DNA from: an uncultured Chlamydiae bacterium
GTDB taxonomy: Bacteria > Chlamydiota > Chlamydiia > Chlamydiales > Rhabdochlamydiaceae
NCBI GenBank assembly: GCA_963718715.1
Contig: OY970369.1
Location: forward strand, 166,302 to 230,301
Direction: 5' to 3'
DNA length: 64,000 nucleotides
Shown here: positions 15,483-19,666 of the stretch, piece after piece
How positions within the stretch are numbered: the stretch's first letter is position 1
How the letters are laid out: each line of letters begins with the position of its first letter
Notes under the pieces: model-generated
What the model was told of the DNA's origin: nothing
The model's input: the letters and a program-made list of their open reading frames with translations, nothing else
The model's database searches: none
Program-made: the position numbers and the translations under genes

Positions 15483-17045
15483 TTAGTTGTTTTGTGAAAG
15501 TTGGACTATTTTCATCGTTGTTTCTCGCAATTTTGTTGCAAGCGGGGCATTAAGAGGAACGCTGTTGGTTATTTTCTTTTTCTGGAAGTCGATGAGTTCT
15601 TTGTTCATTTGATCGAGCTGCTCTTTTGGCAATCCACGGAAATGAGCTTCATTTTTGGTGATGATCTCCAAAATGGAATCCACGATCTTTTCCGCTTCAG
15701 CGGTGTTGTCGTTTGTGACATTGACATGGGTTAACTTGTCTATTTCTTGGGTCAATTGCTGAGTGGGTAAAGCCTTTGGAAGCGCATCGCGGTTAGCTGT
15801 CCTTAAAACCTCATTCATCTTTGCAAGGTTCTCCTGCATTGTACGGCTACAATCTAATGTCTGCTTTATGAGTATAGATGATAACGGCTCAGAAGGCATT
15901 TGTATTTGGGGAAGAGTGGCTGTTGGTATGAGGAGTGTCGGTGCACTGAGATCAGATTCTAGATATGCTTGCTTTTTAGCTGGGGTCAAGCCAACCGGCT
16001 GCGGAGCGAATTCATCGGCGACAGCATTTATTCTATCCCAGGCTCGGTTTTTACGAGAGATTTCTTTGGCTTTCTCTTTTTCCTCTTCTCGGTTTTCATT
16101 GAACCGAATGTGCTGTTGTAGTTCATTAATCTGCTCATCTTTTTCTTGATTGCGGACTTTTAGCTCTCCAATTTGCTCCTGCGCCTTTTTTTCTTTTTCT
16201 TGATATAGCTTGTCCATCTCATTTATGAACTGAGTTTTTCTATCATCGTGGATTATTAGAGTATTAATTGCCCTTTGTTGCTCTGCAATAACGGTGTTCT
16301 GATTTTCTATACGATGTTGTTTATCCTGCATATCAGCTTCGATCTGACGGCGGCGCGCCTCTTCTTCACGCTGAGTACGTTCAATGCCGTCTTTTAGGTA
16401 GCCGATGTGCGCATCTTTTTCTTGCATCTGAGTGTTCATTTCTTCCATTTGATATTCCATCGCACGCTGGCGCTTTTCCATATTCCTAGTAATTTCAGCA
16501 AAGCGTTCGTTTTGCTCTCTCCAAGCTGCTTCCACTTCTTTTCGGGGGATCAGGTCGCCGCCTGGCGCCGCCTGATCGTGGGGATGAGCTGCAGAGGATA
16601 ATTGGGCGGGGGGGAGATGCTGGAGGTGGTCTTGATGGCATCTGTTCCATACATTATTTGCGGCGTCTAGGACCTCTTTGCCAATCCCATAGAGGAAGAT
16701 ATCCTCCGGAGCAAGACGAGAAAATGCGGCCGGGGTCCAGGAGACGCTCACGCTTCCATCTAGGGCAAAAAAGATGGCAAGGGGGTTCTGGCCTTGTGGA
16801 TAAATTTCGATCGTTCTTTCGGTAAAATAGATGTTGGCGTGGGTTCCTTCACCCGGATTCGATCCGAGCAGAGGTCTAACCACCTCTTTAAAGAAATGAC
16901 TCTCGATTAATCGAGCGACGGGGTCGCTAACAGTCCAAACCCTCAATTCTTCGGCATGATAGGGGCAAAGGGGGAGCCGGCTCGACCTGTCTGGCGAACC
17001 ATAGAGGGATATGGGAGGTTGGGCATCTACATGTGTATGAGTCAT
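15483..17045 (-). CDS. Hypothetical large coiled-coil protein (candidate secreted effector)
   Basis: 520 aa. A globular N-terminal ~150 aa is followed by a long E/K/Q-rich heptad-like region (EKRQRAMEYQMEEMNTQMQEKD…). I recognise no enzymatic motif. It has its own strong promoter. Confidence 0.7.
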   Translation of the reverse strand: MTHTHVDAQPPISLYGSPDRSSRLPLCPYHAEELRVWTVSDPVARLIESHFFKEVVRPLLGSNPGEGTHANIYFTERTIEIYPQGQNPLAIFFALDGSVSVSWTPAAFSRLAPEDIFLYGIGKEVLDAANNVWNRCHQDHLQHLPPAQLSSAAHPHDQAAPGGDLIPRKEVEAAWREQNERFAEITRNMEKRQRAMEYQMEEMNTQMQEKDAHIGYLKDGIERTQREEEARRRQIEADMQDKQHRIENQNTVIAEQQRAINTLIIHDDRKTQFINEMDKLYQEKEKKAQEQIGELKVRNQEKDEQINELQQHIRFNENREEEKEKAKEISRKNRAWDRINAVADEFAPQPVGLTPAKKQAYLESDLSAPTLLIPTATLPQIQMPSEPLSSILIKQTLDCSRTMQENLAKMNEVLRTANRDALPKALPTQQLTQEIDKLTHVNVTNDNTAEAEKIVDSILEIITKNEAHFRGLPKEQLDQMNKELIDFQKKKITNSVPLNAPLATKLRETTMKIVQLSQNN

Positions 17046-17077
17046 AATTACACCTTATTATTGTTTTTATGTATTTA

Positions 17078-17106
17078 ATTATATTATTTAATCGTTAAAA
17101 AGTCAA
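17078..17106 (-). promoter_or_regulatory. Sigma70/66-type promoter TTGACT-N17-TATAAT for the 520-aa ORF
   Basis: On the minus strand, TTGACT is at 17106-17101, the spacer is 17 nt and TATAAT is at 17083-17078. It lies about 30 nt upstream of the ATG at 17045, inside an extremely AT-rich tract. Confidence 0.45.
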
Positions 17107-17164
17107 TTTAATATTTTATACGCGTTTGTGTTTGTTAATTAGTGATTTAGAGCTTTTAAAAAAA

Positions 17165-17300
17165 GATCCGCTTTGGTATCCCTTCGATATGTAAACAACT
17201 CTCGCCTAAAGGCGAAAGCTTTATGGTCAGCGATTAACTGCCACATGCGTGCGGTTTACAGCGCACGTTGCTCGATCGGCAGATAGAGCAAACCTACAGA
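17165..17300 (-). ncRNA. Predicted omega/reRNA guide-RNA scaffold of TnpB (position inferred)
   Basis: In characterised TnpB systems the guide-RNA scaffold overlaps the 3' end of tnpB and runs to the right end of the IS. The RE hairpin lies here. No covariance model was run. Confidence 0.3.
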
Positions 17301-18336
17301 GATTCCGACTTGCATTCAAGTCGCTGTGCTGTCGGTTTCCACAAGAACATGTAAAACGGTGCTTTTGTCTTGCGCCAAGAGCACCGCATAAGGAGCAAAT
17401 TTGACTGCTATAAGCTGGATTCATGTAGATAATCCCCAAGCCGCGAGCTTGGGCCTTGTATTCGACAAACAGTTGCAATTGACTAAAGGCCCAGCGGTGC
17501 AGACGAGTTCTGTTTCGCTTGCTGCCTTTGATCCTTTTGCGCATGTTTTTCAAGTCTTCAAGAACAATCATCCCAGCGCCCATTTGAAGGGCTTCTTTCA
17601 CAATCTCATTGCTCATCCCATGATTGACATGTTTCATCCAGCGCGCTTCTTTGCCAGAGATTTTCTTCAGCAATTGTTTTGCCGACTGAGAACCGTTGGA
17701 CTGAAGCCTGCGCCGCATGGCGAGATATTGATCCCTTTGAAAGCGAATCTTGCCTCCGCAAATCAATTTGCCGCTGCTCATCGCAGCCGCGTTATTCTCC
17801 CCAAGATCCACCCCAAGCAGCGTGTCGCTTTGGCTCAAGGCGGGATCGGGAAGATCCAACACAAGGTTAAAAAACCATTTTCCCTTTTTACAGATCAACT
17901 CAGCTTCTTTGGGAATACCCTGAGCAAAATACTGCTCTTGGAAGTCGCTCATTCTCATTTCCACTTTAATCCGCTTACCCAAAGTGTAGAGAGAAAGAAT
18001 TTTTCCTTTGATCGAATAGGTCCGTTTGTCAAAATGGACGCTTGCGTTTTTGCGAAACTGAATCTTTGGAACTTCTTCGCTTTTTTCAATGCCTCGATTC
18101 TTATAGGCTTTGCACACGGCAAAGATCGCACTGCACACCATCTGAGAGCCGAGTGGAGATTCCATTCTAATTTTGGAATAGCAAAGATGGTGGAGTGCAA
18201 CTCGATTCCAACATCGATATTCCATTGCAAAGGGGACGATTTCATTGCAGGCGGAAACAAAATGATGTCCCAACTTAAAAAGCTCTTGGCTATCCTCAGC
18301 AGCAACTTTAATTTTAATCGAAATCGTGCGTTTCAT
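17227..18336 (-). CDS. tnpB: TnpB (IS605 OrfB-type RNA-guided endonuclease)
   Basis: The RuvC triad context is intact (GVDLGENN, IVLEDLKNM, HSDLNASRN). The zinc finger is CSLCG…CSCG. The 369-aa ORF is uninterrupted. Confidence 0.9.
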   Translation of the reverse strand: MKRTISIKIKVAAEDSQELFKLGHHFVSACNEIVPFAMEYRCWNRVALHHLCYSKIRMESPLGSQMVCSAIFAVCKAYKNRGIEKSEEVPKIQFRKNASVHFDKRTYSIKGKILSLYTLGKRIKVEMRMSDFQEQYFAQGIPKEAELICKKGKWFFNLVLDLPDPALSQSDTLLGVDLGENNAAAMSSGKLICGGKIRFQRDQYLAMRRRLQSNGSQSAKQLLKKISGKEARWMKHVNHGMSNEIVKEALQMGAGMIVLEDLKNMRKRIKGSKRNRTRLHRWAFSQLQLFVEYKAQARGLGIIYMNPAYSSQICSLCGALGARQKHRFTCSCGNRQHSDLNASRNLCRFALSADRATCAVNRTHVAVNR

Positions 18337-18439
18337 TGGCTGCAGAAAATACTCAAATCTATTTTAAAACTCAAGTTAAATAAAGGAGCGGCGTTTCCTC
18401 CCAGTCCTAAAGGACTGGGTTTCCACGCCGTCAAATAGG

Positions 18440-19666
18440 ATGAAAATGGATATAGGAATAGGTTGGCTTTTCCTCCTATTGGCCATCACTGGCCTTCTGG
18501 GGGCGGGGGAACCCTCTGCCCTCTATTTGACCTGGGTGGGCGACCCGAGCAGTACGATGGCCATCCAGTGGCACACGGGGAAGGAAGAAGAGTCGCGGAT
18601 CTTTTACCAAAAGGAAGGAGAAGAGAAGTGGCAGCAGATGGAAGGGCGCGTTAAACCGATCCGCCGTACGGCTGTTTTTGTCCATGTCGTCGAGCTGACA
18701 GAGCTGGAGGAGGACAGCGACTATGCATTTAAGATGGGGGAGGAGGGGGAAATCTATCGCTTTCGGACGCTGCCCAGAGACCTGAAGCGAGAGGTGCGTT
18801 TTGTGGTAGGAGGAGATGCCTACTCCTATCTCAATGTGCTCAAGAAAATGAATCGGGAAATTGCAAAAAGCGATCCCGACTTTGTGATTTTAGGCGGAGA
18901 TATCGCCTATGCTCATGGGCGAGCCTCCCTGTTTAGAGGGGGCCAGGCGGAGATCAAGCGCTGGCAGACTTTTTTCAGGGAATGGAAGAAGATGGTGACA
19001 ACGGAGGGGAGGCTGATCCCGCTCCTGGTCGTCATCGGGAATCACGACGTGAAAGGCCCGCGCCTCGATCCTAAGGAAGCGGAGGTGATGTTTTATGAGC
19101 TGTTCGCGTTTCCGGAAGAGGGGATTCCTTACCGCACGCTCGATATCGGATCTTACTTGAACGTGTTTCTATTGGATACGGGACATACCTATTCGATTGG
19201 TGGCCAGCAGTCGTTGTGGTTAGAACAGGCTCTAAAAGAGCGGGAAAATACTCCTTTTAAAATGGCTGTCTACCACGTCAGCGCCTATCCGTCGGTTTAT
19301 CCCTATTCGGGCAAGGCGTCCGCTAAGATCCGCAAGTCGTGGTCGCCCCTCTTCGAGCGGTATGGCGTGCAGGTGGCGTTTGAACATCACAACCATGCCT
19401 ACAAACGCACCTTTCCCATCAAAGGGGAAAAAATCGATCCGGATGGGGTGATCTATCTGGGAGATGGCGCTTGGGGAGTGGCGCCTAGAAAACCGCTGTC
19501 GCCGCAAAAGGCGTGGTACTTGGCTAAATCAAAGGCCGTCAATTGTTTTTGGCTAGCGACCCTGCGAGAGGGCGAATGCGCCTTGGAATCGCGCGATCTC
19601 AAGGGCAGAACGATTGAACGGTTTGCAATTAAGAGACTGTCTGAGCGCTTAGCAAGTTCTCCATGA
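18440..19666 (+). CDS. Secreted metallophosphoesterase, purple-acid-phosphatase-like
   Basis: Signal-like N-terminus, an Fn3-like segment (MAIQWHT) and calcineurin-type motifs GGDAYS, GGDIAYA, GNHD and HHNHAYKR. Confidence 0.8.
   Translation: MKMDIGIGWLFLLLAITGLLGAGEPSALYLTWVGDPSSTMAIQWHTGKEEESRIFYQKEGEEKWQQMEGRVKPIRRTAVFVHVVELTELEEDSDYAFKMGEEGEIYRFRTLPRDLKREVRFVVGGDAYSYLNVLKKMNREIAKSDPDFVILGGDIAYAHGRASLFRGGQAEIKRWQTFFREWKKMVTTEGRLIPLLVVIGNHDVKGPRLDPKEAEVMFYELFAFPEEGIPYRTLDIGSYLNVFLLDTGHTYSIGGQQSLWLEQALKERENTPFKMAVYHVSAYPSVYPYSGKASAKIRKSWSPLFERYGVQVAFEHHNHAYKRTFPIKGEKIDPDGVIYLGDGAWGVAPRKPLSPQKAWYLAKSKAVNCFWLATLREGECALESRDLKGRTIERFAIKRLSERLASSP

Follow-up and report, generated by a model that had tools for sequence, protein, structure and literature searches.

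The target of Helicobacter pylori IS608 is TTAC and the TAM of ISDra2 is TTGAT; the element described here lies next to TTCAT. Its host belongs to the Chlamydiae, bacteria that are hard to manipulate genetically. This phylum has been reported to be TnpB-poor (PMC10691335). The described elements that most resemble ours are the tnpA-less, IS1341-type ISGst elements of Geobacillus stearothermophilus, which consist of a single tnpB between subterminal hairpins (bioRxiv 10.1101/2023.03.14.532601). In Geobacillus, a single TnpA mobilizes elements that lack tnpA and have TTTAT or TTCAT as their TAM, and about 50 copies without tnpA are predicted there to move in trans (Meers et al. 2023, bioRxiv 10.1101/2023.03.14.532601).

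We examined a TnpB element in a window of 64,000 nucleotides (the whole stretch of DNA that was analyzed, to which all positions refer unless a genome position is given), which is part of a chlamydial genome consisting of one 2,217,981-bp contig of 48.5% G+C. The main result is that positions 17191-18439 (minus strand) are very probably a copy of a recently active, non-autonomous IS of the TnpB-only IS200/IS605 family (IS1341-type). Its borders were set by BLASTN and flank alignment across the 22 genomic copies, at the points where their likeness stops; this gives an element of 1,249 bp and replaces the span of 17165-18436 in the preliminary description, which had also regarded the element as a stand-alone orphan. 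The 22 copies are 96-100% identical and all their ORFs are open. All but one of them are 99.6-99.9% identical and occupy unique sites, each departing from the consensus of these copies at a few bases. There are two size forms, 1,249 bp and 1,250 bp, the latter a subfamily of seven copies with one additional A in the left end (LE), and both forms have multiplied. Such identity at unique sites, together with two multiplied subfamilies, requires very recent transposition. The remaining copy (genome position 898,925) has an identity of 96%, and its 14 nonsynonymous against 27 synonymous differences indicate purifying selection on TnpB.

The 3' end of all 22 copies is GTTGTTTAC; every copy closes with GAGAGTTGTTTAC, beyond which unique flanking DNA begins. 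The right-end (RE) terminus, GTTTAC (17191-17196, minus strand), comprises the final bases common to all copies and forms the junction with the guide described below. At the other border, the target, or TAM, TTCAT (18440-18444, minus strand) flanks the LE; on the plus strand it reads ATGAA and includes the start codon of a phosphatase gene. At 21 of the 22 copies the LE is preceded by TTCAT and at the last one by TTAT, often with a T upstream of the TAM, and TTCAT also precedes most relatives from other genomes and from metagenomes. No target duplication was seen at the RE flanks of the copies. Insertion 3' of a fixed pentanucleotide without duplication is a hallmark of the IS200/IS605 family, and so are the ends themselves, which carry subterminal imperfect hairpins and no terminal inverted repeats. 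With GC-skew landmarks that place the origin near 2.02 Mb and the terminus near 0.98 Mb, 15 of the 22 copies are oriented as the lagging-strand-template rule would have it, a weak bias (one-sided p = 0.067). No empty-site allele of the phosphatase locus was found in 25 relatives, the best orthologue (57%) being too far for nucleotide comparison.

The LE hairpin (18389-18430, minus strand) has two tiers, and we presume that it is the structure recognized by TnpA on the top DNA strand. An outer stem, CGGCGT/ACGCCG (18430-18425/18394-18389), is followed by internal loops, GGAAA/AGGAA, and by an inner hairpin at 18419-18400, CCCAGTCC-TTTA-GGACTGGG. In 15 sequences from different genomes, 95.2% of the cells are paired (28-49% in slid controls), and compensatory changes affect 9 of the 14 pairs. 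The RE hairpin (17220-17197), AGCTTTCGCC-TTTA-GGCGAGAGTT, has six pairs with compensatory changes in relatives. Both hairpins are topped by CCTTTAGG. The hairpins with a common CCTAAAGG centre that had been noticed at both flanks are thus real, the compensatory changes placing them beyond chance; likewise, the HMM matches given below, the ends of the 22 copies and the covariation bear out an intact TnpB element of IS200/IS605 architecture. The genome also contains, at C1:1954546-1954616, a perfect palindrome of 61 bp in which the first 28 nt of the left end of this element are joined, at the hairpin loop, to their own reverse complement; its two flanks read TTCAT and ATGAA. A decayed copy of the IS605-like element described below is 1.3 kb away, and the palindrome may be the footprint of an aberrant hairpin-mediated event.

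The window copy lies between a phosphatase gene and a gene for a coiled-coil protein. The former (18440-19666, plus strand) encodes a purple-acid-phosphatase-like protein of 408 aa with a signal peptide and the Pfam domains Pur_ac_phosph_N and Metallophos; alignment with its orthologues (44-57% identity) starts at residue ~10. Its ATG (18440-18442) is the CAT of TTCAT. The insertion had been placed 3 nt from this start; the distance is 0 nt, because the ATG is part of the TAM. The gene has indeed been separated from all its native upstream DNA, as proposed earlier: the original divergent intergenic region of 145 bp (17046-17190) is now 1,249 bp away from it. This region contains a near-consensus promoter, TTGACT-17-TATAAT (17106-17078, minus strand), of a 520-aa gene. 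The product of that gene (15483-17045, minus strand) is without Pfam domains; the gene follows tnpB in the same orientation, and read-through from the element would run into it.

Abutment on a start codon is recurrent. At 10 of the 22 copies, the ATG of the TAM opens an outward ORF of 139-408 aa. Six of these ORFs have Pfam domains, and the phosphatase makes seven; nine of the ten were counted as real genes, two of the nine without a Pfam match. They include genes for a KdsB-type (CMP-KDO-synthetase-type) cytidylyltransferase, a beta-carbonic anhydrase, a NUDIX hydrolase, a glyoxalase-type protein, a C39-like peptidase and a DUF502 protein. For two of these products, the cytidylyltransferase and the glyoxalase-type protein, the Pfam domain starts a few residues after the junction ATG. 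Several insertions are at tight gene junctions within apparent operons. Other chlamydial genomes show the same arrangement at 13 of their 16 single copies, and metagenomes at 19 of 42 distinct insertions, which gives a pooled count of 42 out of 80 insertions (52%). Among all ATGAA sites of the genome, 6.9% resemble starts, and this fraction rises to 40-50% among the non-intragenic ones. Abutment is in strong excess over the all-sites null (p ~1e-27); both the 10 of 22 in this genome and the pooled count agree with the non-intragenic null. Active targeting of start codons was therefore rejected as the main reading, the 42 of 80 not being above the latter null. On the simplest reading, which accounts for the abutment, TTCAT provides a start codon in reverse complement (ATGAA) and intragenic insertions are purged. 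The position at the phosphatase start is not special; it follows from the TAM and recurs at 10 of the 22 copies. Insertion between a ribosome-binding site and its ATG appears to be tolerated no worse than other intergenic insertion.

The alternative that fares best attributes these positions to the left end itself. It would be a portable expression module, providing an antisense outward promoter, a split ribosome-binding site or both, so that copies at start codons are retained and the flanked gene is expressed. Several features point this way. CTCC is nearly invariant beside the LE stem, so that the gene strand carries a conserved GGAG at the 5' foot of the hairpin, and the ATG follows 9 nt past the 3' foot; nine real, full-length genes of the genome start exactly at the junction, several having lost a recognizable native Shine-Dalgarno through the insertion; and among the older single copies of other chlamydial genomes, the 13 of 16 are above the 40-50% null (p = 0.001-0.01). 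We nevertheless consider this explanation unlikely, since the pooled fraction of 52% (n = 80) is inside the null range, the promoter scan yielded no outward promoter, and the conserved CTCC may serve TnpA or the tnpB promoter instead. A broader version, in which the TnpB clade co-evolved with TTCAT to dock on ATG-AAx starts and the antisense LE supplies a promoter and, via the conserved GGAG that its hairpin would bring beside the ATG, ribosome binding, strikes us as similarly improbable. If the LE did take over expression, insertion would rewire the flanked gene rather than silence it, and nine genes here, including the phosphatase and the kdsB-like gene, would be under transposon-borne control. 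Returning to abutment as a consequence of the TAM, the link between TAM and start codon offers a simple way to predict where elements of this kind accumulate, and nine genes have been deprived of their native upstream regions by the tnpB element, which could matter for their expression.

The tnpB gene (17227-18336, minus strand) encodes a protein of 369 aa. It scores 172.2 bits (cut-off 100) in the NCBIfam model NF040570 (guided_TnpB, RNA-guided endonuclease TnpB family) and passes both Cas12f1-like_TNB and OrfB_IS605 of Pfam (PF07282, 65.3 bits, cut-off 26.3; PF01385, 32.5 bits, cut-off 30.5). The RuvC residues D177 (in GVDLGENN), E260 (in LEDL) and D339 (in HSDLNASRN) and the zinc-finger cysteines C314/C317/C330/C332 are invariant in an alignment of 15-16 relatives, and in phmmer comparisons with solved structures the motif residues fall on the catalytic positions of Cas12f and TnpB. 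The preliminary description had all RuvC contexts and the zinc finger kept, and had named misassignment of the catalytic residues as what would undo this; the assignments hold against characterized Cas12f and TnpB proteins. An AlphaFold2 model of the protein (mean pLDDT 84.4) has the WED/REC/RuvC/TNB fold, and its top Foldseek matches are AsCas12f, ISFba1 TnpB and ISDra2 TnpB (E-values 1e-21 to 1e-11). As judged from its sequence, TnpB is catalytically complete. It had been presented as compact; at 369 aa it has an ordinary size for a TnpB, inside the usual range and not exceptionally small. The copies differ at two places of possible consequence: N69S (18128-18130) is private to the window copy and affects a residue kept in at least 90% of relatives, and R232L/W233R, of which R232 is an invariant arginine, is common to six other genomic copies. 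These substitutions suggest that the 22 copies may not all be equally active.

A putative tnpB promoter, TTGAGT-17 nt-TATTTT (18346-18374, minus strand), was read from the sequence and is below the threshold of the promoter scan. Its -10 box stops 9 nt ahead of the ATG, and there is no Shine-Dalgarno in 18337-18374 (minus strand). The upstream layout of tnpB is alike in relatives (TTGAAA-17-GATAAT, 8 nt, ATG). So short a distance between the -10 box and the ATG suggests a leaderless or nearly leaderless tnpB mRNA.

The 3' end of tnpB and the RE would together form a structured RNA. We aligned the last 240 nt of 17 elements, and the helices found by RNAalifold, with two more placed by eye, make up a five-helix structure. 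The predicted omega-RNA (reRNA) scaffold is about 150 nt long (17197-17340, minus strand) and overlaps the final ~37 codons of tnpB. Its covarying helices, all on the minus strand, are H1 (17323-17306), H2 (17291-17268), H3 (17267-17248), H4 (17243-17224) and H5 (17220-17197), the last being the RE hairpin. Over the alignment, 91.5% of the cells are paired (33-40% in slid controls), 24 of the 38 pairs have changed on both sides, and the covariation score is 0.494, against 0.05-0.11 in controls. Folding the single sequence 17340-17191 gives the same helices, with an MFE of -58.5 kcal/mol (z = -5.07). Helices 2 and 3 are within the poorly conserved codons of the C-terminal tail of TnpB, and helix 1 coincides with the codons of the RuvC-III motif (SDLNAS), in which compensatory changes between relatives indicate that the stretch is constrained both as protein and as RNA. 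A search of the region against the Rfam covariance models (E <= 10), the scan suggested for the omega-RNA, gave chance-level matches only and no omega-RNA family. The predicted structure fits a TnpB omega/reRNA scaffold, and the structured RNA anticipated at this end of tnpB is supported by the five helices, the 24 compensatory pairs and the folding z-score. From the known TnpB mechanism, the guide portion of the omega-RNA of the window copy is predicted to be ATATCGAAGGGATACCAAAG (17171-17190, minus strand). TTCAT followed by this guide is the sequence of the empty donor site; the 16-nt guide occurs once in the genome, and elsewhere there is no site with TTCAT and the seed. With 22 intact TnpB copies, a known TAM, defined ends and a covarying scaffold, the element is a candidate for a compact endogenous RNA-guided nuclease.

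That no tnpA is present had been stated earlier; this is right locally, none adjoining any copy of the tnpB element in a whole-genome search with Pfam Y1_Tnp, but it does not extend to the genome, which holds three intact Y1 tnpA genes in another IS. All of the Y1_Tnp matches, three intact and five fragmentary, are in that second IS. It is an IS605-like element of 1,703 bp (genome C1:1359998-1361701) with a 138-aa tnpA divergent from a 383-aa tnpB2, whose product is 24% identical to the window TnpB. Three copies are full, each with an intact tnpA, and several others share the same ~196-bp deletion inside tnpA, which implies that a tnpA-defective derivative has spread. Further copies of the second IS are at about 375114, 2082611, 322322, 381235, 606105, 1881356 and 1955920 on genome C1. 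We also met, in the flank of one tnpA locus, a repeat family of ~572 bp with at least 12 near-identical copies (for example C1 319406-319977, 411476-412047, 498682-499257, 751410-751981 and 1801158-1801729), probably a further IS or a miniature element.

The two resident elements have similar ends. The TAM of the second IS is TTTAT and its end is ...GGAGGTTCAA(C); the first 15 nt of its left end are nearly those of the tnpB element, and in its LE the outer stem, the 5/5 internal loop, the 8-bp stem and the tetraloop all recur. The RE hairpins have the core CGCCTTTAGGCG in common. The sequences of the inner LE hairpins differ, and no convincing simple rule of base-pairing between an LE 'guide' and the TAM emerged for TTCAT and TTTAT in the two elements. 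In metagenomic relatives (loci L120-L147, TnpB identity ~54-57%), a Y1 tnpA ends immediately before tnpB, indicating that the clade has autonomous members; the three left ends that were read among them (L126, L133 and L134) have the same GGAAAC-hairpin-AGGAA architecture, after TTCAT. Identity between the resident TnpA and the TnpAs found with the window TnpB clade in these metagenomes is only 30-36%. A Y1 TnpA is present in 13 of 26 related genomes carrying the window-type TnpB, among which relating TnpA presence to TnpB copy number was uninformative. A check for a serine recombinase partner of the IS607 type showed one resolvase in the genome, which is unlinked. Since the sole Y1 transposase belongs to an IS with the same LE architecture, mobilization in trans by the resident TnpA is the likely route; the low TnpA identity and the differing inner hairpins make it plausible only.

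That the copies are immobile relics unrecognized by the resident transposase, with a TnpB that merely persists or has been co-opted, for instance for RNA-guided regulation, would agree with the missing adjoining tnpA, the different sublineage of the resident TnpA and the half of the related genomes that have no Y1 TnpA, but it is most improbable given 21 nearly identical copies at unique sites in two multiplied subfamilies, a complete LE, RE and TAM in every copy, and catalytic residues that are intact, unlike those of nuclease-dead TnpB-derived regulators.

For the recently active, non-autonomous IS that we favor, we propose the following cycle. A Y1 transposase would excise the top strand as single-stranded DNA and insert it 3' of TTCAT; this genome offers one candidate for it, the TnpA of the co-resident IS605-like element. 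tnpB would be transcribed from the LE, and the 3' part of tnpB, the RE and ~16-20 nt of flank would yield the omega-RNA. The TnpB-omega-RNA complex would cut the TTCAT-flanked empty donor site after excision, and recombination with the sister copy would then restore the element. Insertions that spare coding sequence would often fall exactly 5' of an ATG-AAx start, as at the phosphatase. The locus would in this way be a clear-cut case, from nature, of elements that lack tnpA and probably depend on the transposase of another IS.

Compared with known systems, the element is closest in organization to ISGst. Both have a lone tnpB flanked by subterminal hairpins, a TAM of five nucleotides 5' of the LE, and an omega-RNA (predicted here) from the 3' end of tnpB and the RE, and in both cases copies without tnpA are numerous and the few elements that do carry tnpA have similar ends. 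TTCAT and TTTAT TAMs coexist in the Geobacillus genome as they do here, but TTCAT belongs there to an IscB element and here to the TnpB element; the hosts differ as well, Geobacillus in one case and a chlamydia-like bacterium in the other. The TnpBs of ISDra2 (in complex with reRNA, PDB 8EXA and 8H1J) and ISFba1 (8IAZ) have the same fold (Foldseek probability 1.0), the RuvC D-E-D triad, the zinc finger and a right-end guide RNA (predicted here), although their sequences are only 17-19% identical to the window TnpB, and ISDra2 has its own tnpA. By score, the nearest solved structures are those of Cas12f and not of TnpB (AsCas12f, TMq 0.65). Type V-F Cas12f proteins (AsCas12f, CnCas12f1), which are of similar size, are the best matches among solved proteins in both sequence and structure; here, however, there is no CRISPR array and there are no cas genes, and tnpB is inside a 22-copy transposon with LE, RE and TAM. 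An identity as type V-F CRISPR-Cas12f was rejected on the IS context and on the Cas12f2 HMM (88.8 bits against a cut-off of 450). With H. pylori IS608 and IS605, the element shares Y1-type ends, each with a hairpin, and insertion 3' of a short target that is not duplicated, and the second IS of the genome has the same divergent gene layout as IS605; the H. pylori elements are autonomous, with both tnpA and tnpB, whereas the window element is without tnpA. In kind, it is thus a typical IS1341-type TnpB element, made moderately unusual by its abundance in a chlamydial genome and by the effect of its TAM at start codons.
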